A stretch of 24,497 nt of DNA from positions 1 to 24,497 of IMG/VR virus record IMGVR_UViG_3300034118_001689; one strand, 5' to 3'. The DNA comes from a virus (Duplodnaviria > Caudoviricetes). Positions within the stretch are counted from its first letter, which is position 1. Every line of letters begins with the position of its first letter. The notes beneath the pieces were generated by a model. It made no database searches. It was not told where the DNA came from and saw only the letters and a list, made by a program, of their open reading frames with translations. The position numbers and the translations under genes are program-made. Shown piece after piece: positions 2,915 through 24,497 of the stretch.

Positions 2915-4984
2915 ATGGCTTGGAATTCATCCGAAAATAAATCACTGGACCAACAGCAGAAAAAATCTGCAATTGGTTATGGCGCTCCAGTCACATCAAA
3001 CCCTAGTTACACGGATAAGCCATACAGGGACTCGTGGGATATTGAGCGTGCATACCGAGAGGGTATGCAGAAAATCACTTGGGTGAACAGATGTATCGAT
3101 GCTATTGCAGGCAACCAAGCACGACTTCCAATCATTCTCAGAAAAGATAATTCAAAAGATGGTGAAGTCGTAGTTGGACGTGAGGCGAAGCGTTCATCAC
3201 TGCTTGAGTTACTCAACGTTAAATCCAATATTGGTGAAAACTCGTTTATTTTCCGATACAGACTTTCTGCTCAGTTGTTGCTTGGCACAAGAGGGGCATT
3301 CATTGAAAAAGTTCGCGGAAGAGATGGCGGTGTTATTGGCTTGAATCTCCTCCCCCCACAATCGACTGCCCCAATTCCATGCCCTCGCAAATTTGTTTCT
3401 GGGTACGAAGTGAACATGCCGTATGGCAAGAAAATAATAATGAAGCCAGAGGATGTTGTGTGGATTAGAAGACCGCACCCCCTTGACCCATACCTTTCTC
3501 TCACGCCTCTAGAGGCTTCTGGTGTTGCTATAGAGATTGAAAATTTGGCAAAGCTCTACAACAGAAACTATCTATTAAACGATGGAAGACCTGGTGGACT
3601 TCTTGTTGTTAGAGGCGAAATAGACGAGGACGATAAAGAAGAATTACGCAATAGATTCAGGGGCAATTTGGGCAAAACTGGTCATACAACAGTTATCGCC
3701 GCAGACGAAGGCGTTGACTTTGTTGATACATCAGCGAACCCACGAGATGCTGCATATATTCAAATGCGACAGATTACAAAAGAAGAAATTCTTGCAGCCT
3801 TTGGTGTTCCAGAATCAGTTATTGGAAATGCCTCCGGAAGAACGTTTAGCAACTCGGCAGAAGAAATTAGGGTGTTTTGGGTTGAGACAATGCTGCCTCA
3901 CCTTGAGCCGATAGCGCGAGCACTGGATGAGCTTGACGAGAAATATTACCTAGATTTTGACACAAGCGAAGTTCCAATCCTTTTGCTCTACAAGCAAGAG
4001 CGCGACAGATATTTGAAAGATGAGCTGTCCCAAGGTTTGATTTCTGTCAACGAATACAGACAGGCAAGTGGAAGAAAAGAAGTTGAAGCAGACCTTGCTG
4101 ATTCTCTGCTTATGAATCCAAACCTAATTCCAATTGCTAACACCAAAAAGAAGATGGAAGAGAATGCTGCACAGGTTCCCGGCGGAGCTCCAGGTATGCC
4201 CCCGGTTCCAGGTATGCCTCCAGTTCCTGGAATGCCGCCAGTCGAAGCTCCAGTACCACCACTTGACCCAAATACAATGCAGGGCGCAATGGCCGAAGTT
4301 GCTGCTGGCGGAACTGGGGATATGGCTCAAACAACGTTGCCACCAGAGGTCGCTGGTATGGCTCCTGCTACTGGAGCAGCGCCAATCCCGTCTGGTATGG
4401 CTAGCGAGTCTTCTGGCGGATTCCAGCACAAATCTGCTCAAAGCGATGAATTCGACAAATCTGAGATGGCAATAGAAAGATGGTCTGAAATTCTTTCAAG
4501 AGGTATTGAAAGAGTTGTTGAAAGACAGCAGCGCGTGGTCCTAGAGAAAGCAAGTAGCAGTAAGTCCAAGAAGGCCCTTATGTCGGGAACACTTGACCTT
4601 GATTCAATTTTCTCAATAGACACATGGAACAAGCAATTGGAAGACGACCTACGTCCTGTTATCTCTGCGATAGTCAATGACTCCTACGAGTTCAGAAAAG
4701 AGTCATACTCGCAGAAGGGATTGAAGCCAAGGGCGCTATCTCCAGCAATTGTCAAGAAGCACATTGATTCGCAAATATCCGAGATACTCACCATGAACTC
4801 TGGAATTCGTTCCTCAATGGAAGAAATGATGATGAAATCATTCTCGCATGTGGGAGAAGAACAGCGTTTCTCGGTTTTTAGAGAAGAGCTTGTTGGGATG
4901 TACGCAAATATCCTTGCAAAAGACCAGCTTGAGATATCTGAGTCAGAAGCAAAAAGAGCCTGGACATTCGGACAGGTTGCCTAG
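2915..4984 (+). CDS. HK97-family portal protein with Pro-rich linker and helical C-terminal extension
   Basis: Portal motifs WVNRCIDAIA, LLLGTRGAF, YLSLTPLEA, NDGRPGGLL, EEILAAFGVPESVIG and ISVNEYRQASG. About 290 extra residues follow the core. Confidence 0.93.
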   Translation: MAWNSSENKSLDQQQKKSAIGYGAPVTSNPSYTDKPYRDSWDIERAYREGMQKITWVNRCIDAIAGNQARLPIILRKDNSKDGEVVVGREAKRSSLLELLNVKSNIGENSFIFRYRLSAQLLLGTRGAFIEKVRGRDGGVIGLNLLPPQSTAPIPCPRKFVSGYEVNMPYGKKIIMKPEDVVWIRRPHPLDPYLSLTPLEASGVAIEIENLAKLYNRNYLLNDGRPGGLLVVRGEIDEDDKEELRNRFRGNLGKTGHTTVIAADEGVDFVDTSANPRDAAYIQMRQITKEEILAAFGVPESVIGNASGRTFSNSAEEIRVFWVETMLPHLEPIARALDELDEKYYLDFDTSEVPILLLYKQERDRYLKDELSQGLISVNEYRQASGRKEVEADLADSLLMNPNLIPIANTKKKMEENAAQVPGGAPGMPPVPGMPPVPGMPPVEAPVPPLDPNTMQGAMAEVAAGGTGDMAQTTLPPEVAGMAPATGAAPIPSGMASESSGGFQHKSAQSDEFDKSEMAIERWSEILSRGIERVVERQQRVVLEKASSSKSKKALMSGTLDLDSIFSIDTWNKQLEDDLRPVISAIVNDSYEFRKESYSQKGLKPRALSPAIVKKHIDSQISEILTMNSGIRSSMEEMMMKSFSHVGEEQRFSVFREELVGMYANILAKDQLEISESEAKRAWTFGQVA
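4190..4243 (+). repeat. Three imperfect 18-bp tandem repeats encoding (PGMPPV)3 in the portal linker
   Basis: ccaggtatgcccccggtt / ccaggtatgcctccagtt / cctggaatgccgccagtc. Confidence 0.9.
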
Positions 4985-5092: not shown

Positions 5093-8000
5093 ATGTCAAA
5101 AGAAACATTCGAGTATAAGACCACATCGGTATCAGGCTCCCAGCAGATTAAGGGTGCTGTAGGCCTGGATGAGATGCAGGGCATTGTCGAGTGTTTCGTT
5201 GCGGGAATTGGTAATAAAGACTCTGTTGGCGACGTTTGCGCCTCGGGGGCATTCACAAAGAGTCTTCTCCGCCGCAAACCGAGAGTTGTTTGGGGCCACA
5301 ACTGGAATGACCCAATCGGCAAAGTGCTTGAAATTTACGAAGTTGGCCCACAGGACCCACGCCTTCCAATGAAGATGAAAATCGCCGGAATTGGCGGTCT
5401 TTTTGCAAAAGTTCAATTCAATCTTCAGTCAGAAAAAGGCAAAGAAGCATTTGCAAACGTGGCCTTCTTTGGAGAAGAACAAGAGTGGTCAATCGGGTAC
5501 AAGACGCTAAGAGCTCAATTCGACCAGAAGTCACAAGCAAACATTCTTTACGAAGTTGAGCTTTATGAAGTAAGCCCTGTTCTGCATGGGGCAAACCAGT
5601 TAACTGGAACAATCTCGGTCAAGGGTGATGACTCATCGTACGGTAATCCTGTCATGGTGATGCCGGAGCAAGATGAGCGCAACGGGTACGAAGAGATGGA
5701 GAAGGAGCTGTCAAGACTTTTTAATGCCAAAGTCTCAGTTCATTCAATAGATGGCGATGAGGTCGTCTTCACCAGACACGAAATGTCCGGAGCGAAAAAG
5801 TACAAGTGTGGATTCATGAGAAATCATGGAAGATACATGTTCGGAACACCTGAGATGATTTCTGTTCCGCAGAATCCTCAGGCAGCTCCAATGCCAGTTG
5901 TTAGCGGTAGACCGACTCCACCAAATGAACCACAAAGAATTGTCAGACCACAGCAAATGCCATCCATACCTGTCGCTGTTAAGCCAGGCGACAATGGAGT
6001 TGTGATGATTCCACTCCCTTCAGTCCAATATGACGCTTCGCCAAAAATGAGCCTCGACAAAGAAGAAGCAGACCTGCGTGATGCTCTTCTTAAAATCGTT
6101 GCACGCCACGGAAAATTTAACGAGGATTCAAATGGAGTTTGGGCTGGCTACTACCCTCCTGCTGAAAATCCAGTTGCCAGAATTGGTGTCAAGTGCGCTA
6201 ATTGCGTGTTTTATAAAGGCGGGTCAAACTGCAAGATAATTGACATGCCTGTAGAACCAGAAGGCAAGTGCAGATTTGCTGTCATCCCGAATGGCGTTGT
6301 ATTGAGCAGTGGCTCAAAAGAACTTGAGGAACACGCTTCAGAAGCAGAAGATGCAATCATGGAAACGCTTGAGCTCAAGTATCCAGGGGAGTTTGTTCTC
6401 GGTGTGCTACGAAATGCCGTCGGCAAACGAAAGAAGAGAAGAAAGAAGTACAAGAATCTCGCCGAATTTGGCGACGAGGACGATATGGGCGAGAAGTCCT
6501 ACCTCATTCCTGTCGAAACAGATTTTGCATTTAGTGTAAAGACCGCACTAGACCCAGTATTCGATTACTACAGAGCAGAAACATTTGTTGACAAAGAGGG
6601 AATAGTAATAACCTCTGGAGTTACTGAAGATTTGATAGATGCAGTCGATACGGCTCTCTACAACTTAAAAAAAAAATTTCCAAATCATGAAATAGAGGGT
6701 AAATCCCTCGGCTACAGAATTGGCCGTTCGCTTGCATCAAGAGCAATTGATAGACCAAGCATTGGTGGCAAAAGGCGTGGTGGCCGTGGATTCGGCATGC
6801 CAGAGGGCGACCTGGACCCACGAACAAGAGTAGACAAAAACAGAGACGGAACACTCTTTGACAACATTCCTGGTTGGGAACAACCAGACCCAACACCAGA
6901 TGGTCCTGGCTCGATAAACAACCCAAAACTTTCTTCCGCACAAAGAAGAGACGTTGCCAGTATTCCTGGTGAAGGTGAAAAAACAAAACCAGCAGATGGT
7001 GAAATAATAAAGAGCCGTAAACCAAAGTACACGGCCGACGACCTTGGTGAAATTCTTGGAGAAAAGAAGAAGCCCGCGAAGAAGGCTGTAGCCAAAAAGG
7101 CTCCTGTTAAAAAAGAAAAAGTAAAACGAGGAGAACTAGATTTCGCTAAGGGTCCTAAAAAGGATAAGACGCCTTCACTTTCATCTGGTGAAAGCGACAA
7201 GAGACTCACTCGCCACTCGGGAGACCCAAAATTTGAATCACTTGTTTCTCCAGAAGAACTAGAGAAGCGCAAGAAATTCGAAGAAGTAATTAAAGACTGG
7301 AAAGATTCCGGTTATGGCTGGACAGATGTACCTAGGTATAAGCCAGATGCTTACAGGTCGCCTGACTATCTGCGCGGAAGAGAGATGGGTGTCAATCAAG
7401 CCAGGGTGATGTGGCTTGGAGATAAAACCAATCCAAGACCAGCCAAATTCGAAGATAAAAATACGTCTTCTGTTGCCTACAGGGATTGGTACTCAGGGAT
7501 GGTTATGCGTGCCGGCACCTTCCTTGATGCATCACGTGGTGATGACAACGAATTCTACAACGGCATGGAAGATGCAATACATGAATTCATGTACAACAAC
7601 AGACCTGATGCAACTGGGTTCAGGGGTATTGGCCCAGATGGGAAAGACGGTCTATCCGACTGGATGCGTCAATATGGTTTCGACTCATTATCGCCAACTC
7701 CATTAAGAAAGAAAAAAGAAGGAAAAAAGAGAAGTTCACTCTCCCTCTCTTCTGGCGCAGACGACGATACAAGACCAAATTTCGACGAAGAAAATTATGA
7801 GAGCGACACGAATGTAGATTTCTACGACACCATTCTTGACATGATGGGTCCAGAAGATGACCGACCAAAGGTTTCTTCTCGCAAGAAACAAATGAGCGAT
7901 GAAGAGATTTATCGCAAGAGAACGACAACTGGAGCTTCCCTGCAGGATGTTGCAGAAGAGCTCGGTCTGACGAGAATGGAAGTCAGAAAGCGCGAGCAGC

Positions 8001-11000
8001 GTCACATGCGCAAAATGCGTAAAGACAAAGAGGGCGTTTCGCTCTCTTCTGGTGCAAAGAACGAGTGGGCCACTTCGCGTGGGTATGAGCCTGACAGATT
8101 TGACCTTCGTGAGGCAACAAACCAAATAGGTCGCGGAAACATCATGGCCATCTCTGGCGGTCGTGTTGAGCGCAGAGGAAACGAGATGGTTCTTCCTTCA
8201 ACAAAGGACCAGCAAGTCGTTATCGGTTATAACTCCGTCCCAGACCTCTACTACGTCAGAGCTGAACAAAAAATCAATACAGGTAAAGACAAGGGCAAAA
8301 ACAGAATTCTTGCTCAGTGGGATGAAGTTTATGCTGACGAACTTGGCGAACTTGCATATCAAGCAAGTCTCAAGCCAGCAAATCTGAATAACGAGAACAA
8401 AGAGTACTGGAAGCTTGGTAAGGGAAATCAATTCGCTGACAGAATTGTTGACAGGAGAAACGGAAAACTTGTAGATAGAGATTCAGAGAACCTCCCATCT
8501 GCACCATCGAAAGACGAAACTCCTTCGCTGTCTTCTGGTGGACGGGGTCGTGATTATTACAACTACGACATTGAAACAAGCGACGATGGCAATAATCTTC
8601 TTGACCAAATCCACGATGCGTTAGAGGAAAATCCACTTATCAAGGATGACATCACTGCCGATATGGCGGACATGCTTGGTGGAGACGGGATAGTTGAAGC
8701 CAATGGTTTTGACACGCAAAAGGCTTTTAATCTTGTAACTGGAAGCGATGATGAGTTCCAGGACTACATGGACATCGTTGACGATGCAATGGACGCACTG
8801 GAAAACGGCTCTCTTGCAAAACACAAAGCAACAGTGCGTGATGCGAACGTAAGACTCGATTCAGCAAAGCCTGGAAGTAATGAAGCAGGGAAGCTTGAAG
8901 CACTTCGCGACAGGTCGTATGAGTGGATTGGTGACATCAACAAGTATTCACGTGTTTCTACAATTAAAGACAAGAAGAATATTGAAGCCAGTGACGTAGC
9001 AACACGAATGATTTCCAAGGAGCAAGACGCACTCTGGAACGCTCGTTCTGCAATAACAGAAAAATACATAGAAGATATCGCTTCTGCTAGAAAAGAATCT
9101 AAGCGTCGTGTTCCTATTGAGAAGATTGATTCTGATAGAAATACGGTTCCTGATTACGATTTGGCACTTTCTTCTGGAAGCGTCATGAAAGATGCTCCAT
9201 TATCGAAAACTCTTGCTTCAAAGAAGGACGGAATTACCTTATCTTCTGGTGAGTTGCAAGCTACCTACAATGAAATTGGGAAATCAATACTAGAAGCATT
9301 AATCGAGATGGACAAAAATCCAAATCAAACATATTGGGATGTGCCGTGGAGAACGCCAACTCTGTACGCAAGAAATCCAACTAGAAAAAATCGAATATAC
9401 CAGGGCATGAATCAAATACTCCTTGCCCATACCCATAGGAAGAATAATTACCGTGGAAACTTCTGGGCTGGAGAGTCACAATGGGCGAAATTTGGAGGGA
9501 AACCAAAAAAGGGAGAAGAACCTGTATCGATTCTCGTCCCAATAGAGGGAACAATTCCAAGGAAATACAAACTAGAAAAGGTATTGAACCTTGACCAAAT
9601 GGAAGGCCTTCCAGAAGCATACGTAACGAAACTTCTAGATGTTGGCAAAGAACGTCTTGACCCTGCGCTAAAAGTCAAGGACGCTGAGTCCGTCATAGAT
9701 GAACTAAAGCCAGTTATTAAATTTGGTGGAGATGAGGCATTCTTTTCTCCGAGCGGAGATTACATTCAGATGCCGCCTTATGAAATGTTCAAATCACCAG
9801 AGCAGTATTACGGAACGCTTTTTCATGAAGCAACTCACTGGACCGGAGGCTCTGCACGCATTAATAGGCAGACCATAAAAGACTATGCGAAAAACAAAAA
9901 GATTCGCGCAGCAGAAGAATTGATTGCAGAAATGGGCTCCTCATTTCTTCTTGCCGCTATTGGCATATCCCCGCAGGTTAGAACAGACCATGTTGTCTAT
10001 ATAAAAGGTTGGATTTCAAACCTTAAAGAAGACCCAGGTGCATTTATTAAGGCCCTACAACAGGCACAGTCGGCAGCTGACTACATTCTTGATAGGTCGC
10101 CAACATTGAGAAGACTTTCTGGCGTGCCGGAAGAACAACGCAAGGCAAAGCCACCGAAAACCATAATTAAGCCTGCTAAAGAAATAGCCGAAGAGGGTGT
10201 GTCTCTGTCTTCTGGCAGACTCCCAGAGCCTTGGCAGTTGCGCGATGATGTGCGATATTTCGGAGATGAATCTCAATATGGTTCTGGAGTAATTTCCAGA
10301 GACTCTAAGGGTCGGGTCCGCGATGCAGCAGGTGGTCTCTCGCTTTCAAGCGGAGCAAGCCGAGTAAAAAATCTTAAGACTGGAGAAGAAGTTCCAGCAT
10401 TGCTTGAAGACGATGAATCTTATGCTGAAAAGTTTCTCGGAGAAAAAGATTTTGAGCCAACTCAGCAGCAAAAAGCTGCAATCGATACGGCAATGCACAT
10501 GGTTGACAAGAAAAAGGGCAGCCTTGTCATAGGTGCCGGAGCCGGTTCTGGAAAAACTTCGACAATGAAGCAAATTGCAAAAGTGTTGAATAAAATTATT
10601 CCGGATGGAAAAATCTACTACACGGTATTCAACGCCGGAAACGCAAAAGACGGCAATAAAACAATGCCTAGGAATACTGGAGTTGCAACAACTAATCGAA
10701 TTGCCTATTGGTCACTCCTACTCGGTGGTGATACCGGAATATATGGTCAGGGAACAACAAAAAAGATGCAGTTAAGTGCAACAAAGAAATTTTCAAAAAG
10801 ACTTCCAGGCTCGCAAGCGGACAAGGTTATTAATGCAACTATGTTCGATGGTTCAGAGAAGCAATTCATTGGCAGAGAACCGGGATGGTCTGACCTCGGA
10901 TATATAGCGCCAGACTCAATAGAAGGTGTACAAAACATCTTGCTCCAACTCGATGCAGAAAAGAAACTTCCGTCAACAGTTTCAATCGATGACGAAAGCT

Positions 11001-17771: not shown

Positions 17772-20700
17772 ATGACGGGTGATACAAATAAGACGCGAGT
17801 AATCGTTTCTCAACGATTGATATCGCCTTTATCGTGCTGCAATAATTTCAACTCCAAAGCGATTGAGTTCCGCGCGTCGGTAACCAAGTCTTTATCAATG
17901 TCGCGCCTTGATGCGGACATTGCCGTCAAGGCAGCAATGGGGGCTAAGCCGACATATCAGGACACCGACAACAAGAAGCGGGAATTTACTGGAACAACAA
18001 AACCTGGGGTAGAAGAAATCGCACCAGGGATGAGAGTGGAGACCAATAAGGCTTGGGAAGAAGGAAGAAGTCTAGTTCTTTATCCAAGTTGGAAATCAAA
18101 GCGTTCAATGAATCTTGATGCCAACTTTGGATGGATTGAGGGTAAGCAAGATACCGATTTTGAGACAGCTCAGAAAAAAAGAAAAGAAAAACCACAGCTT
18201 CAATTTACAAAATATGATGTGAACCCAAAGACTGGTGATGTCATTCCTGGTTCAGAAACACAAATTGATATGGCCTACCCACGGCTCGGTTTGTCTAGGG
18301 CGCAAAGACGCAAACAGAACAAAAACGTTAATAATCCGCAAATGCAATTCAAAGCAGGGTTACCTGGACGCTCTCTTGAATCACGTATACCGGGTGGGAA
18401 TCTTCTTGCTAGGGCAGCCGGGAGATTTGGCATAGCAAGAGACGCAAACAATAAGTTTAGGTGTCCACCAGGAACTCCTGCTGCAAACCAATTTACCGAC
18501 CATCTTGGTTCTAATTGTTTTGGCGTAAGTATGGAGAGGGCGGCAAAATTTCTTGCTGACAAAATAAATCAATTAATGACTTTCGACAGTCAACAATTAG
18601 CCCTGTCTTCCGGTGCAAAAGAAACATGGAGAGAAAGATTGCGCATGAGACGCGGCGGCGCAATGCCTGGAAGAAGTCCATCATACGATATGGAAACTGG
18701 GGAGAGAATACCAACAACCCCAGCAGAAATAGTAGATGTTCCAGGGAGAATGAGATGGTTTAAAAATGCAACAGTAAACGCACAAAGGAACCTTGCTCGC
18801 TCTGAGTCTCTCGTTCAGAGACTTGAATCAAGAACAGGAGTTCGTGATTTCACCCCAAAAGATAGAGAAATTAATAATGATAGATACGAGTTGCTATCTC
18901 GATTAAAAAATATGGGTATTTGGGACATAGATATAAAAGGAAGACTTTCAGAGGAGCAGGTCGATGAATTCATTCAGTCACGACTTGAATTAATACCAGA
19001 ATGGGATTCTTTAACTCCAGAAGAAAAAATAGCACTATTCACGGCAGACAAAAAAAGATATTACGAGACAGAGCGGGCAATGCTTGATTCACTGCTTGAG
19101 CAGTTCGTAATTAGACCAGAACATATGAGGACTGTCGGAAAAGTTGAATTCTTTCAAGACCCAATAGATGATGATAACTCAGAAGCGACAACAACGTGGG
19201 ACGTGAAATCGGAAGGCGCAGGAATAAAGTCGGTCATAAAAGTAAATATTGAGCAAATTATGACCAACCAAGAAGGTGAAGACGGGATACCTGGCATGTC
19301 ACCACGTGAGAGATTAGTTATTTCTGCTATTGGTGGAAGGACTGACGCAGAAGCAATGGCTAAAGTCGCTGACTTCCTGATTAATACAGAATACACGGCA
19401 AGAGGAATGGCTGGTCTTATTGATGGGCCGCGTTCTTTCGCTCGTCATATTATGTTGCATGAAATTGCACATACAATTCAGGGAGAAGCATTTTTAAAAT
19501 CAATTAAACAACAGATAGATGCACATGGTTATGTTGATGTTCCAGTTTATGATTATAAAAAGGGTAGATTTACTGGTGAGATAAAGCAGGTTTCTGATAT
19601 CAGAAAACTAACCGGAGGCGACCTTTCGGTGCTCGTTGTTGGTTCTCAAGACGACATAAACTTAACATCCCTCGAAGATGCAATGTCAAAAATAGAGAAT
19701 GTCGCATTTCTTGCTGGAAGCTACCCTAATGTTTCAAGAAGCGATGGCAGGATGGAAGTTTATGCACTTGAATCCACAGCTGAACTTTGGGGTCTCAGGG
19801 AAGAGGGTTTAATATTTGGGGACGATATAGATGATGCTCTGAGCTTCATGGACGATGCTGTCGGCGCAAAAGCAGCTGAAGCCAGAGCCATAACAGACCT
19901 AGAAATGCTCGAGAGGCTCGAGGAGTCGTACTTCTCTCCACTTGAAAGAGGTGAAGACGTACTGCCAATACGAAAGCATCTTCGCGCTCCAATTGAATTA
20001 GATAAAAAAGCAATTGCAGCAAAAAGAGAAGAACGTGTACTAGGTGAGTTTAAAAAGAGCATCAAGGACCTGAACCAAGAGCAGCTTGCTATAACTCTTG
20101 CCGATGTAATTGAGTTTGTAGATATGGCTGAGAGTAAGAGGAAAGAGCTTTATAGAAGTTTATCCAAAATTGAAGACTCACCGTACGATGCGGCCGAGGG
20201 TGCTTATGACGACTTGCTTGAACAGGTTGAGAAACTAGAAGAATTAATAACACTTAATAAGAAAGCACAAAAGATTGCTATTGACAAAAACACATCTTTC
20301 AATACTGATGGTAAAAAAGCATCAGACAAAGAGATATTGGATATGGCCAGGGAGATTATAAAAGGTAGAGACCCTGTTACCCCAGAAGAGGCAGCTAGAA
20401 GACTGAGCGCTGAAAGGACAGACGCGCTAAGAGCTGAAGCCGGTGCGCTTAGCGATGAGTTATTAGTTAAAAAAATAGCTGATTATGACCTTTTAGCTTC
20501 ATCTCTTAAGCCGGATAGCGATGACTACATACGTAATAGTGCTGATAGAGAAATATTCGTTCAACAGTACATAGCTAATAAACGTGCATCTGGTGACACA
20601 AGAACCCCTAGTGTTATAAAAAATGAACTAAGAGCGAGCATAACTAAAGAAATAACCGCATCTCGAGATGCCGTTGACGGTGCAAAACGCGGCAAACTTA

Positions 20701-23700
20701 AGCCTCAGAAGATGAAGAGCAAAGAGCACATTTCTGCAAATGCAAAAAAAGAACGCGCCAAGCACAGAAGAAATATAACTAAACAACAGTTTGAAGCCGT
20801 AAAAGAAATAGACGACTTCAACGTCGCTGACATAACCCAGGTTCTTGACCCGAATAAGCAATTGGTAGTTGGAAGAGCCATAAACAAGAGAAATGCTCGT
20901 CTAAAGAGGCTTGGGCTTGATTCGGACCCATCATCAATTGATGAGGGCTCACTTGACGAGCAGGTGGAGAATATTCTCATTCCTGCCATGGAGGCAATGG
21001 ATGCATCAAGCATAACCACGCCATTTGAAATGGAAATGTTTATTGATTCGTCGAAGGTGGCGCGAGTCAAGCCAGGAAAAGAAATAGACCTTGATACTTT
21101 TGGTCAAGGCAAGGTTCTTTCACGCTCCATGAAGGCTGGAAAACCAGAAAAAGGAACAAAGAAAAAACGAGTGATAGTTCGCATGCAAGAGGGCGACAGG
21201 GGATTGTTCCCACTTGCCAAAAAAGGCGAAGACCAGAACTTCGTAATACCGCCAGGGAAACTTCGTGTTGTTGGTAGGGATAAAGATGGAAGCCTAATCC
21301 TTGAAGTTTCCTTACAGAAAGACACCGTTGACGTACTCGACGACTTGTCAAAGTCAATCGGCGATGGACCAGATGATGCAATCTGGCGTAAAGGCGCCAA
21401 GAGAAAGATTCAGGCGGTCGCCGACAGATACGCAGTAAGAAGAAAAGATGATGCCGCTGGGACAAAATCCGATGATGCAGCAAAGATTACAGAAACAAGC
21501 GAATCTATTGTTTCTGAGGTGTCTGAATTGGGTGGAGAATTTGGAGAAACATTCTCAGAAAGCCTTTCATCTGGAGCGCGGGAAACAACAGAATCTCTCA
21601 GAACTAAGCGTCAAGAAAGATTCAAGTCTGTACTTGGGGAAGTTAACTCACGTCCAGAACCGCTGCTATCTTCGATGTCAGCTCTCAGGCAGGAAAATGA
21701 GATAGTTCACCGCCGGGTGGAGGAAATACTAAATACTGAATCATTTGAGCAGATAAATGAAAGAATAGAAAACGCTGCACTGAAGCTTCACTCCGGATTT
21801 GATAGACGGGTTCGCGTAAGAATGAAAGAGAACGATATAGAAGAGTTCTCGAAGTCTGGAAAGGTTCGTGCCCTTGGTCTCTCCTCTGGCGCCGTTGGCG
21901 GTGACGGAGAAACGAGACGAACAGGAAGATTGTCAAGAAGGGTAGAAGAATTCAAAAACATAACAGAACAGAAGGTTGCCGCAGTTGGAGCAACGGAAGA
22001 ATTCAAGAAACTTAGAGGAGCTGGTCTTGGCAATGGTGGTTTAGATAGGCTCAACGACGAGACGCTCAAGCGAGAGCACGGACTAGAGCGCTCCGGACAA
22101 AAAAGCGTTCTTTCTGACAATCCGATATATAGAACAGATTCGGCAGAACAGGCAATCGCATTGCTCGCCCTTGGCTATGAAGTTGAAGTGATAGATGATG
22201 GCGAGAGGAAAATGGTTAAAAATGCCGCCATCCAGACAGAGGAAGAGCTGAAGAAGTTCGCCGTAGAAGAAGCCAAAAGGCTTGGAATCCCGGATTCAGA
22301 TACAGACAGATTCGTAAATGCCTTCATAGAAACACATGACATTGATTTGTGTGCTCTTTATAACGCAAATACAAATGTCTTTTGCAGCGAACATCTTGAT
22401 GTCAGGCGTGAGCACATGCCACAGAGCGAAGGTGCAGCGCAAAATGCAAATTCACCAGCTTTAAGGGCTCTAGTTTCTGGGCATGTAGAGGGGAAGTATT
22501 CCCCTAAATCTGGATTGTCAGACGAAGACACCAATCGATATAAAGAAATAACAAAAAAACTTGGAAATCCAGCAAAGTTCTCCGAAGTTTCAGAAGAAGA
22601 TAAACAGTGGGCATTCAGCAATACCGACTGGAGTAAAGTCGAGCCCAACACTGCTCCAGAGTTGATGCAATTCTTAAAGAATGTTCTCGGCGGAGAGGGG
22701 TCTGTGGTTAGAAAGTCCAAAAGCCCAGATTTGCTTAAAGCATCACAGAAACAGCTCAGAAATTCACAAATTGACAAACAAGCTCAGAACATCCTCGATG
22801 AATACAATGCAGCACGAAAGACATGGGGCGTAGAGGGAAGCCCAGAATTTAATGAAAAACGTGCCGAGTTCTTAAAACAGGCATGGTTTCAGTTACCAAT
22901 ACTTGTATCGGATGATGGTTATGTTGTAGACGGTCACCACAGGTGGGCTGCTATAAAAATGTTTAACGACCATGTACCAGAAGCAGAAAGAATAGAAGTT
23001 CAGGTCAATGAACTGCAAAAAAATATCTTCGAATCAATTATATTGGCAAAAGTATTTCAAGAGCATATGGAGATAAAGGGAAAGACTGTTGGGAAAGTCA
23101 AGCCTTTTGTGGATGGCGAAACAAACCCAATGTCAAAAGCTGAGTTTGACGAACATATTCAAAAAGCACAAGACTCAGTGCAAGAGCTGGCAAAAAAAAT
23201 TAAGGATGATGGGTTATACCCATTCACCGTACAGGGGGTTATACCGGAAGAAGAGCGCTCTCCTGGCCTAAAAGCCAACAGAGACAGGTCTGTTAAAGAG
23301 TACGGAATGACATGGAAGCCTGAATACTCGAAAGTAAAATCAGTTGAGGAATCAAAGAAATGGGACGGCTGGGATGGTGTTGAGGTAACCGAAGTTGACC
23401 TGTCATCAGACATTCTTCCTACAGAATCACACCTGAAGGGCGAGTCGATTGACAAAGTTGTTTCTGGTGGTGAGCCTCTTAGAGAGGGGTACTTCGTAAA
23501 CCTAGTTATTGACCAAGACGGAAAAATGTACGTTTCCGACGGTCACAATAGGGTGGCAATGAATAGAGCTCTTGGAAACGAGAAGATTCAGGCGCGTGTC
23601 GTTGACCTTAGAAGAGTAGAAGCTCCATGGGGTGAGCAGAGTTCTGGAAAAACAACATACAAGGGATACGACTTGGTCGAACCTTCCAACCCGTTGCCAA

Positions 23701-24497
23701 AACCTGGAGAATATGCTGAAGATATTGTTGTTGCAGCGACTGCCCAACGAGCAAAAGTTGAGACAGTAGAAAAAGAGATTACCTCAACACTTATAGACCT
23801 TTCAGAAAAACATGGCTCGGTAATGATAGGCCTTGCTGCAAGATTGAAAAATATTAAATCACTATCAAGAAAAATTAATGATGAACGTGGAAATAGAACC
23901 GCGGAAGAAACAGCAGCGGATATGTCTGACGTAGTCAGATACACAATGACATATACCCCAGAAAATTATGTATCTGGTACAAAGGCCGTAGTCGCCGACC
24001 TGGAAGCTGCCGGATACAAGCTTAAGGTTAAAAACTACTGGGAAGCTGGAGACGCATATCAAGGAATAAACGTTGCAGCCGTTCATCCAGACGGAACAAG
24101 GTTTGAGTTACAATTCCACACACCGCAGTCGGCTTTCAAAAAAGAAGCCGTACATGAGATTCTTGATGACTACAGACTTGAAAAAGACCCTGTAGAACGT
24201 TGGATTCTTTACGACAAAATGGTCAAAATGTCTGCGAGTATTGATATTCCCGTTGAAGATGGGCTTCTTGATATCGGTGAAGCCAGGTCACAGGACTTTT
24301 CGTTGGCCCTATCCTCTGGAGCGACCGCAAAAAGAAACAAAATAAACAGGCGTGGTCCTATTGATAGGTTTATTTTAGAAAAAAATAAAAAGGGTGATGA
24401 AGTAAGAAATATAAAATTAGGAACAAGCTCAATAAGTAATCCAGAGAAAATAGATAATGCCGAGTACCTAAAGATTGTTGGTGATATCCCTGGCGTC
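17772..24497 (+). CDS. Second giant polyvalent protein (at least 2242 aa, 3' end outside the window): zincin, ART-like fold, two ParB/Srx domains and a RelA/SpoT synthetase
   Basis: Manual translation MTGDTNKTRVIVSQRLISPLSCCNNF...KIVGDIPGV found no stop codon up to the window end, which is probably why it is absent from the ORF track. Contains 4 LSSG motifs. Confidence 0.88.
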   Translation, partial: MTGDTNKTRVIVSQRLISPLSCCNNFNSKAIEFRASVTKSLSMSRLDADIAVKAAMGAKPTYQDTDNKKREFTGTTKPGVEEIAPGMRVETNKAWEEGRSLVLYPSWKSKRSMNLDANFGWIEGKQDTDFETAQKKRKEKPQLQFTKYDVNPKTGDVIPGSETQIDMAYPRLGLSRAQRRKQNKNVNNPQMQFKAGLPGRSLESRIPGGNLLARAAGRFGIARDANNKFRCPPGTPAANQFTDHLGSNCFGVSMERAAKFLADKINQLMTFDSQQLALSSGAKETWRERLRMRRGGAMPGRSPSYDMETGERIPTTPAEIVDVPGRMRWFKNATVNAQRNLARSESLVQRLESRTGVRDFTPKDREINNDRYELLSRLKNMGIWDIDIKGRLSEEQVDEFIQSRLELIPEWDSLTPEEKIALFTADKKRYYETERAMLDSLLEQFVIRPEHMRTVGKVEFFQDPIDDDNSEATTTWDVKSEGAGIKSVIKVNIEQIMTNQEGEDGIPGMSPRERLVISAIGGRTDAEAMAKVADFLINTEYTARGMAGLIDGPRSFARHIMLHEIAHTIQGEAFLKSIKQQIDAHGYVDVPVYDYKKGRFTGEIKQVSDIRKLTGGDLSVLVVGSQDDINLTSLEDAMSKIENVAFLAGSYPNVSRSDGRMEVYALESTAELWGLREEGLIFGDDIDDALSFMDDAVGAKAAEARAITDLEMLERLEESYFSPLERGEDVLPIRKHLRAPIELDKKAIAAKREERVLGEFKKSIKDLNQEQLAITLADVIEFVDMAESKRKELYRSLSKIEDSPYDAAEGAYDDLLEQVEKLEELITLNKKAQKIAIDKNTSFNTDGKKASDKEILDMAREIIKGRDPVTPEEAARRLSAERTDALRAEAGALSDELLVKKIADYDLLASSLKPDSDDYIRNSADREIFVQQYIANKRASGDTRTPSVIKNELRASITKEITASRDAVDGAKRGKLKPQKMKSKEHISANAKKERAKHRRNITKQQFEAVKEIDDFNVADITQVLDPNKQLVVGRAINKRNARLKRLGLDSDPSSIDEGSLDEQVENILIPAMEAMDASSITTPFEMEMFIDSSKVARVKPGKEIDLDTFGQGKVLSRSMKAGKPEKGTKKKRVIVRMQEGDRGLFPLAKKGEDQNFVIPPGKLRVVGRDKDGSLILEVSLQKDTVDVLDDLSKSIGDGPDDAIWRKGAKRKIQAVADRYAVRRKDDAAGTKSDDAAKITETSESIVSEVSELGGEFGETFSESLSSGARETTESLRTKRQERFKSVLGEVNSRPEPLLSSMSALRQENEIVHRRVEEILNTESFEQINERIENAALKLHSGFDRRVRVRMKENDIEEFSKSGKVRALGLSSGAVGGDGETRRTGRLSRRVEEFKNITEQKVAAVGATEEFKKLRGAGLGNGGLDRLNDETLKREHGLERSGQKSVLSDNPIYRTDSAEQAIALLALGYEVEVIDDGERKMVKNAAIQTEEELKKFAVEEAKRLGIPDSDTDRFVNAFIETHDIDLCALYNANTNVFCSEHLDVRREHMPQSEGAAQNANSPALRALVSGHVEGKYSPKSGLSDEDTNRYKEITKKLGNPAKFSEVSEEDKQWAFSNTDWSKVEPNTAPELMQFLKNVLGGEGSVVRKSKSPDLLKASQKQLRNSQIDKQAQNILDEYNAARKTWGVEGSPEFNEKRAEFLKQAWFQLPILVSDDGYVVDGHHRWAAIKMFNDHVPEAERIEVQVNELQKNIFESIILAKVFQEHMEIKGKTVGKVKPFVDGETNPMSKAEFDEHIQKAQDSVQELAKKIKDDGLYPFTVQGVIPEEERSPGLKANRDRSVKEYGMTWKPEYSKVKSVEESKKWDGWDGVEVTEVDLSSDILPTESHLKGESIDKVVSGGEPLREGYFVNLVIDQDGKMYVSDGHNRVAMNRALGNEKIQARVVDLRRVEAPWGEQSSGKTTYKGYDLVEPSNPLPKPGEYAEDIVVAATAQRAKVETVEKEITSTLIDLSEKHGSVMIGLAARLKNIKSLSRKINDERGNRTAEETAADMSDVVRYTMTYTPENYVSGTKAVVADLEAAGYKLKVKNYWEAGDAYQGINVAAVHPDGTRFELQFHTPQSAFKKEAVHEILDDYRLEKDPVERWILYDKMVKMSASIDIPVEDGLLDIGEARSQDFSLALSSGATAKRNKINRRGPIDRFILEKNKKGDEVRNIKLGTSSISNPEKIDNAEYLKIVGDIPGV
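19200..19800 (+). other. Zincin-like metallopeptidase domain
   Basis: HIMLHEIAHTIQG (HExxH at 19458-19472) and downstream YALESTAELW (E-x-x-A-E third-ligand motif). Boundaries are approximate. Confidence 0.7.
20770..21320 (+). other. Probably degenerate VIP2/C3-like ADP-ribosyltransferase fold
   Basis: C-terminal pattern VIVRMQEGDRGLFP...GEDQNFVIPPGKLRVVG resembles the ART segment I-x-V-P-x-G-x-x-G...E-x-E-x-L-L-P-x-G. The catalytic R, STS and ExE residues are not evident. Confidence 0.4.
22730..23010 (+). other. ParB/Sulfiredoxin-like domain 1
   Basis: LKASQKQL...PILVSDDGYVVDGHHRWAA (DGHHR at 22929-22943). Confidence 0.8.
23380..23610 (+). other. ParB/Sulfiredoxin-like domain 2
   Basis: ILPTESHL...LVIDQDGKMYVSDGHNRVAMNRALGNEKIQARVVDL (DGHNR at 23538-23552). 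Confidence 0.75.
23740..24255 (+). other. RelA/SpoT-type small alarmone synthetase / nucleotidyltransferase domain
   Basis: All four synthetase motifs in order: RLKNIKSLSRK (23841), SDVVRY (Asp at 23928), KNYW...YQGIN (24057) and FELQFHT (Glu at 24105). Confidence 0.88.

Follow-up and report, generated by a model that had tools for sequence, protein, structure and literature searches.

How does a phage come to carry an alarmone synthetase inside a protein of its own head module, and what holds such an enzyme in check? The question is raised by a 24.5-kb stretch of DNA (24,497 nucleotides; IMG/VR virus record IMGVR_UViG_3300034118_001689, Caudoviricetes), here called the window. Its head module comprises a terminase, a portal protein, a 3626-amino-acid (aa) protein, a 557-aa protein and, from position 17772, an open reading frame (ORF) that contains a RelA/SpoT synthetase domain. 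A second record (L001), 100% identical to the window over 10,840 shared bases, completes this ORF at 2903 aa and has a capsid gene a few kb past it. The reading that we favour, and regard as probable rather than secure, is that the domain makes (p)ppApp, travels in the phage particle, is released together with two ParB-like domains as one unit and is controlled in trans by an unlinked IapK-like protein.

An Apk-type synthetase domain in a head-module protein

The four synthetase motifs that an earlier, sequence-only reading of the window had called intact are all present (RLKNIKSLSRK, which we take to be a syn1-type motif, DVVRY, YQGIN and ELQFHT), as are the conserved catalytic residues D91, R94, K125-N126, N138, E150 and Q152. 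The domain had been drawn from position 23740; the conserved unit begins earlier, at YKGY (23658). A mismatch between the predicted structure and the RelA/SpoT fold had been named in advance as one of the outcomes that would overturn the proposal; the AlphaFold2 model of the domain (pLDDT 93) matches that fold. All top Foldseek matches are RSH/SAS structures, led by chains of SaEAS (PDB 8VX3) at TM 0.71-0.77 and followed by Tas1 (6OX6; E 7.7e-07) and then by RelP and CapRel (TM 0.43-0.56). A phmmer search with the 222-aa domain likewise matched SaEAS (E 1.4e-13), and a 45-row profile retrieved SaEAS (4e-36) and Tas1/Apk1 (1.1e-05), with no CapRel or RelP/RelQ chain among its 25 rows at E≤10. 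Pfam RelA_SpoT (PF04607) gave 16.8 bits, below its cut-off of 27. Values of dN/dS were 0.105 between the window and L003 and 0.03-0.08 within close pairs, remoter pairs being near or at saturation. Together these results support a RelA/SpoT fold whose active site is intact and evolves under purifying selection.

The signatures described for Apk enzymes are RYT, GxN and YH (PMC12226406), and the window has RYT, GIN and FH. Conservation is high across the 45 rows, with DxxRYT in 44, YxGxN in 45 and EQFHT in 42. All 45 GenBank phage records matched are Apk2-type loci or unannotated equivalents at ~28-34% identity (34% for the Mannheimia phage Apk2 domain). They come from Streptococcus, Pasteurellaceae or Ralstonia phages, none is a mycobacteriophage, and the annotation is mostly head morphogenesis or minor head protein. 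Five loci that we inspected have a MuF-type gene, a small gene and, in three cases, an annotated phosphohydrolase, which is the published apk2-iapK-aph1 order (PMC12226406). Its RYT/GxN/FH signatures and its nearest characterised relatives, Apk and EAS enzymes, assign the synthetase to the Apk group, and its product is most likely (p)ppApp, formed by moving pyrophosphate from ATP to ADP or ATP. The domain recurs in head-module proteins of many phages, where it is preceded by portal or MuF-like parts or by short repeated leader motifs.

LSSG linkers and the predicted released unit

The protein around the domain is punctuated by short linkers. L[SA]SG occurs six times in the full 2903-aa protein and 12 times in the giant protein upstream, against shuffled means of ~0.2 and a maximum of 2 (500 shuffles). 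Scored with a matrix built from 62 sites, the six linkers of the 2903-aa protein reach 14-21.5 bits. One of them is the LALSSGA that had been read as following the domain, and we infer that cleavage occurs at LSSG.

The upstream cut had been placed at QSSG. This tetrapeptide is present but scores 1.2 bits; an SSG appears in 22% of shuffles of the 806-aa segment that bears it, and relatives have QSTG, QKPG, VDPS or GSPD at the same position. Three sister phages (L016, P0003 and P0004) keep a full LSSG linker between ParB-like domain 2 and the synthetase and another before ParB-like domain 2, which in P0003 and P0004 stands as a module of its own between LSSG linkers. Both of these linkers are missing from the window's lineage. 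QSSG was rejected as a cut site on its low score, its variability and the deletion of the true linker. Since it is probably not a site, the released unit would measure ~810 aa and include both ParB-like domains.

We found 205 viral relatives of the synthetase and examined the best 80 loci, 13 from the window's lineage and 67 outside it. The linker-bounded synthetase unit is 238-249 aa in 9/9 sister loci, where it runs from linker to stop. In the window's lineage it is 810-926 aa in 8/13 loci and 1421 aa in 4/13, where the downstream site is absent; 1/13 is cut by the contig. Release of a stand-alone small synthetase, as the sequence-only reading had it, is on these lengths likely in the sisters and unlikely in the window's lineage. 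Other relatives (P0008-P0026, L023-L037, L045 and L064) have different short leaders upstream of the synthetase in place of LSSG (KH..HDQ.SH or KY.P.QPRD..GR), suggesting parallel processing or packaging signals.

The surroundings (portal, prohead protease, MPTase/ArdC-N polyvalent protein and capsid genes) agree with the proposal that the domain is virion cargo. Pfam places the prohead protease at the start of the 3626-aa protein, which also has ArdC-N, MPTase and helicase domains. The MPTase and ArdC-N markers of this protein, and the ParB-like, synthetase and GNAT-like domains of the 2903-aa protein, are features of polyvalent phage proteins, and the polyprotein would be taken into the virion and processed there. 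L001/L002 and L012-L014 have the GNAT-like module after LALSSGA and L003-L006 lack it at that place, an exchange at linkers. Another LSSG-bounded module (L001 11320-11680, aa about 2404-2524) consists of two tandem copies of a ~44-aa repeat. The module following the first linker contains HEIAH (window 19458-19472), presumably a zincin-type HExxH motif and another candidate peptidase. A single PHROG family without an assigned function (phrog_2859) has matches in the ParB-like part as well as in the synthetase; the pairing thus recurs elsewhere.

Table. Positions of the synthetase domain, its motifs, the linkers and the head-module context in the window
Feature	Position	Strand	Remark
Giant multi-domain head-region protein with synthetase	17772..24497	+	open at window end; 2903 aa in L001
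Apk/EAS-type RelA-SpoT synthetase domain	23658..24302	+	aa 1963-2177
RLKNIKSLSRK	23841..23873	+	
DVVRYT	23928..23945	+	catalytic Asp; RYT, Apk syn2 signature (PMC12226406)
YQGIN	24057..24071	+	GxN, Apk syn3 signature (PMC12226406)
ELQFHT	24105..24122	+	catalytic Glu/Gln; FH versus YH in Apk2-snu and IR in ppGpp synthetases (PMC12226406)
LALSSGA linker	24303..24323	+	predicted processing site closing the unit; 19.6 bits
LGLSSGAVG linker	21873..21899	+	closest strong linker before the domain (20.1 bits); start of the 810-aa unit with the synthetase
QSSG	23637..23648	+	1.2 bits, probably not a site; sister phages retain a complete LSSG linker at this junction, lost in the window's lineage
ParB-like domain 1 core (DGHHR)	22851..23000	+	in the synthetase's linker-bounded unit; Pfam ParBc_2 E 5.6e-4 (below cut-off), PHROG ParB-like
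ParB-like domain 2 (DGHNR)	23241..23657	+	fused directly to synthetase; lead: ParB_N on 26% of one Atlas cluster
Start of next module, GNAT acetyltransferase-like	24324..24497	+	after LALSSGA
Portal protein	2915..4984	+	head-module context
Prohead protease (Peptidase_S78)	5183..5611	+	N-terminus of 3626-aa protein; candidate processing enzyme
MPTase-PolyVal metallopeptidase	9680..10054	+	after ArdC-N in 3626-aa protein; second candidate processing enzyme, polyvalent-protein marker

Adjacent and displaced immunity genes

Outside the window's lineage, a gene or domain of 65-85 aa follows the synthetase. A profile built from 29 of these downstream genes, here called IapK-like, matches 54/67 loci at E<1e-10 (25/38 non-seed loci); the 13 that it misses include early-ending contigs and, by eye, divergent or in-frame fused copies. 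The wide family aligns with genes of five GenBank Apk2 phages that are called iapK from their position only (hhalign 95.9%, E 6.5e-9), and a 7-row subfamily does so at 84.3% over 27 columns. Foldseek with the IapK-like model gave no match at E≤0.001. VIA-align of the model to Tis1 (6OX6_B) gave Z 4.1 and rmsd 3.5 Å over 61 residues at rank 4, within the common background.

The same profile matches none of the 13 lineage loci and nothing in the window, in keeping with the earlier statement that no antitoxin is visible there; the three longest relatives nevertheless carry an IapK-like gene in trans. Whole-record searches of G002, G003 (170 kb, rated 100% complete; IapK-like gene at 168043-168294) and G004 each found one synthetase and one IapK-like gene, 34.7, 34.2 and 31.6 kb downstream, respectively. 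The unlinked gene is thus present in 3/3 lineage records long enough to show one; G001 and G006-G009, which gave no match, end less than ~21 kb past the synthetase domain. The displaced gene is intact, with dN/dS about 0.05 (dS near saturation), and sits before a gene of 141 aa; the region is variable and also contains ssb and tRNA-Met. Among 21 loci of the subfamily to which the displaced gene belongs, some probably redundant, 11 have the 141-aa neighbour, with no synthetase in their stored flanks; the other 10 lie directly after a synthetase and lack that neighbour. In a set of 26 long records of the phage family, picked mostly by a conserved head-region gene, synthetase and IapK-like gene occur together in four and are both missing from 22; the eight records at least 90% complete divide into two with both and six with neither. 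These patterns suggest that the window phage's own IapK-like gene lies outside the fragment and that an antitoxin for its synthetase probably exists. Between G002 and G003 the displaced immunity proteins (L083 versus L085) share 81% identity and the synthetases 98%, a hint that the immunity locus has been exchanged or changes faster.

A 166-aa gene after the polyprotein, which has no Pfam match, was also considered as antitoxin and rejected: the IapK-like profile is silent on it, and a similar gene occurs in a sister (L082) that has its own IapK-like gene.

For the synthetase and IapK-like protein of G003, the predicted complex scored 0.83 (best control 0.01), passing a mark attained by 116/157 solved complexes and 2/215 mismatched pairs. 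Runs had at least 85% of contacts in common, with partner pLDDT at least 89. The predicted interface is the catalytic face, including D91, N138, E150 and Q152, so that the IapK-like protein is predicted to cover the active and acceptor site. On the synthetase side 28/35 interface residues are identical in the window. Faster change at the predicted interface was not seen (6-31% changed versus 14-50% elsewhere, among non-identical rows), and slow change is expected there because the interface overlaps the active site. At window 24162-24230 the synthetase differs from the lineage at 7/35 predicted interface positions, including Y169L, and may have its own immunity specificity.

Gene order points to how the two genes came apart. 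In 9/9 sister loci the polyprotein stops after the synthetase and is followed by the IapK-like gene, with the conserved last domain as a separate ORF; in 13/13 lineage loci this domain is in frame with the polyprotein. In a tree, the nine rows with an internal synthetase group together (SH-aLRT 99), and the group lies nested within terminal forms that have their immunity gene next to them. The simplest reading of gene order and nested position is that the unlinked state is derived. A synthetase-immunity cassette would first have ended the polyprotein gene, splitting off the conserved last domain; in the window's lineage the immunity gene would then have left the head operon and the frame become continuous.

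IapK-like sequences also occur in other arrangements. In L047, L048, L051, L055, P0020 and P0037, by weak or by-eye matches, one is seemingly fused in frame after the synthetase and appears to form a cis toxin-antidote fusion. Elsewhere (L023-L028, L033-L037, L046, L049, L070 and L076) the domain opens a longer head-region protein of 209-1553 aa, with a Lys-containing junction after it, and may itself be processed.

Phages of the window's lineage are 150-170 kb. WhiB is present in 5/5 records and, among 14 controls, only in C. glutamicum, suggesting an actinobacterial host. No tyrosine integrase, the one integrase type searched for, was found in five complete records, two of them with synthetase; a serine integrase could still support a temperate life style. 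The carriers are large and probably lytic phages of a likely actinobacterial host.

Mechanism, alternatives and known systems

What the sequence displays is a domain within a late head-module protein along which LSSG linkers recur. The enzyme would yield (p)ppApp and drain ATP. During late expression, the IapK-like protein from its separate locus is predicted to block the acceptor site in trans. The polyprotein would enter the prohead and be cut at LSSG by the prohead protease or MPTase, leaving the ~810-aa ParB-ParB-synthetase unit rather than a free 220-aa domain. After ejection, the enzyme would be active in the newly infected cell up to the point at which the injected genome provides the IapK-like protein, which would also guard against enzyme from kin virions. 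A bolder version, which we think less likely than not, is a timed injection device: the toxin travels in the head polyprotein while the antidote gene lies outside the late operon, so that only a genome that survives entry makes it. If so, the host would receive a brief alarmone pulse that blunts ATP-dependent defences, would die if its defences eliminated the phage DNA ahead of antidote synthesis, and once infected would be immune to enzyme from kin virions.

Several points weigh against a packaged (p)ppApp synthetase under trans control. The window's own IapK-like gene is not seen, G000 and G001 being fragments, and the nearest records showing the displaced gene have synthetases only 66-72% identical to the window's. 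Extension from the L001 end toward the locus gave an end pattern that matched only L001's own contig. The four double-positive records are not independent, since they were already known synthetase carriers and are kin. On the displaced gene's strand there is no promoter-like site, nor is a conserved motif found upstream. Close cousins of true partners also pass the complex test; because the Tas1-Tis1 complex is solved (6OX6) and Tis1 is a weak match of the IapK-like model, the pass may reflect likeness rather than binding of this pair. BcTis1 is described as Tis1-like (PMC10083569). L008-L011 have no LSSG after the domain, and the tree is a quick search with midpoint root and no bootstrap. Motifs, finally, lack the power to settle the product: both alarmones are made by SaEAS, only (p)ppGpp by AaEAS (PMC12691689), and swaps of syn motifs left specificity unswitched (PMC12226406).

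The best-surviving alternative turns on that product. Packaging and IapK-like control would be the same, but the enzyme would make (p)ppGpp or a mixture, retuning host transcription at entry instead of draining ATP. We think this unlikely, although AaEAS and SaEAS lend it some weight: the latter is the closest solved relative and prefers guanosine acceptors by Km (PMC12691689), and an alarmone-like shutdown was proposed for such domains by Iyer 2017 (PMC5512222). Against it, the assayed phage relatives with an IapK-type partner (Apk2 of snu, mhao and B. caccae) make (p)ppApp, and an HD hydrolase of the Aph1 type to reset the signal was not found, with no HD_4 match in five records, two of them complete (control 10/14). 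A phage Aph1-position protein used as query also found nothing in five records, in a search without positive control.

The proposal that embedding silences the domain, with cuts at QSSG and LALSSGA activating a stand-alone enzyme and the distant gene a relic, we judge improbable. The strong LALSSGA linker, the short linker-to-stop units of the sisters and the lower toxicity of full-length BcApk2 relative to its toxin domain (PMC10083569) all speak for it, but the weak, variable QSSG and the deleted true linker do not, and the distant gene is intact at low dN/dS and absent from 22 synthetase-free records. The trans IapK-like gene thus weakens the earlier idea that the polyprotein keeps the enzyme inactive, while the BcApk2 result leaves room for it, and some autoinhibition besides trans immunity is possible.

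We consider it highly improbable that the enzyme is not injected and acts late in the producing cell, in shutdown or competitor exclusion, with the IapK-like protein titrating it: published accounts call the biological role of Apk2 unknown (PMC11699363, PMC12226406), which leaves scope for such a role, but the recurrence of the domain in head-module proteins across many phages and the description of MuF as a low-copy capsid component (PMC12226406, PMC10083569) argue for delivery. Of the two options that the sequence-only reading had offered, alarmone synthesis stands, as an Apk-type enzyme, and a tRNA-CCA pyrophosphorylating toxSAS (CapRel/FaRel2/PhRel type) has next to no likelihood, for despite the common fold (CapRel 7ZTB in Foldseek at E 1.7e-05) CapRel reaches only TM 0.43 at rmsd 9.3 Å against TM 0.74-0.77 for the best SaEAS chains and has no profile match at E≤10, and mycobacteriophages are absent among the 45 phage matches.

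Much of this has precedents. Apk2 MuF toxins with IapK (BcTis1) and Aph1, characterised in 2023-2025 (Ahmad 2023, PMC10083569; Paulet 2025, PMC12226406), have a homologous synthetase at about 30-34% identity, the RYT/GxN signatures, a head-module location and a homologous small immunity family. Unlike them, the 2903-aa protein has no MuF Pfam match, and its synthetase is internal, ending ~725 residues before the C-terminus; iapK is directly downstream in 0/13 lineage loci, with a homolog 32-35 kb away in relatives; and the Aph1-like hydrolase, variably present in Apk2 systems, was not found in five records. Apk2 was described from temperate phages, whereas the phages of this lineage are 150-170 kb long, carry WhiB and yielded no tyrosine integrase. 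Its mode of action would resemble that of Apk2, yet two features that define Apk2 are absent: MuF with a C-terminal synthetase, and an adjacent iapK.

Polyvalent phage proteins (Iyer 2017, PMC5512222) likewise belong to the head region, combine several domains (MPTase, ArdC-N, ParB-like, GNAT and RelA/SpoT) and are predicted to enter the virion and undergo processing. That study explicitly lists RelA/SpoT among their domains and had already described it in polyvalent proteins and MuF fusions in 2017; its versions are from Spirochaete and epsilon-proteobacterial (pro)phages, and the LSSG linker and immunity gene are undiscussed in the available part. SaEAS (PDB 8VX3; Ahmad 2025, PMC12691689), the closest solved relative in structure and sequence, has the same active-site residues; it differs in being a bacterial enzyme that is exported by Sec, produces both alarmones and has no immunity gene. 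Tas1/Apk1 with Tis1 (PDB 6OX6), the second-best structural match, whose immunity protein the IapK-like model resembles weakly (Z 4.1), is delivered by T6SS/PAAR and has an adjacent immunity gene. Packaged RelA/SpoT-domain cargo, as first noted for the window, is therefore largely known in kind, as is Apk cargo in phage heads. Searches of the open-access literature found no precedent for the internal synthetase position or the unlinked immunity gene, and nothing relevant on alarmone synthetases in virion polyproteins, prohead-protease polyproteins with effectors or unlinked toxin-immunity pairs of MuF phages.

With these loci the range of Apk cargo grows to include large phages, probably lytic, whose host is likely an actinobacterium. 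Searches based on gene neighbourhood would miss unlinked antidotes of this kind and call such toxins immunity-free. The phages also provide a natural series, from a terminal cassette with adjacent immunity, through an internal synthetase with immunity 32-35 kb away, to the absence of both, which makes the role and timing of head-associated Apk toxins testable.

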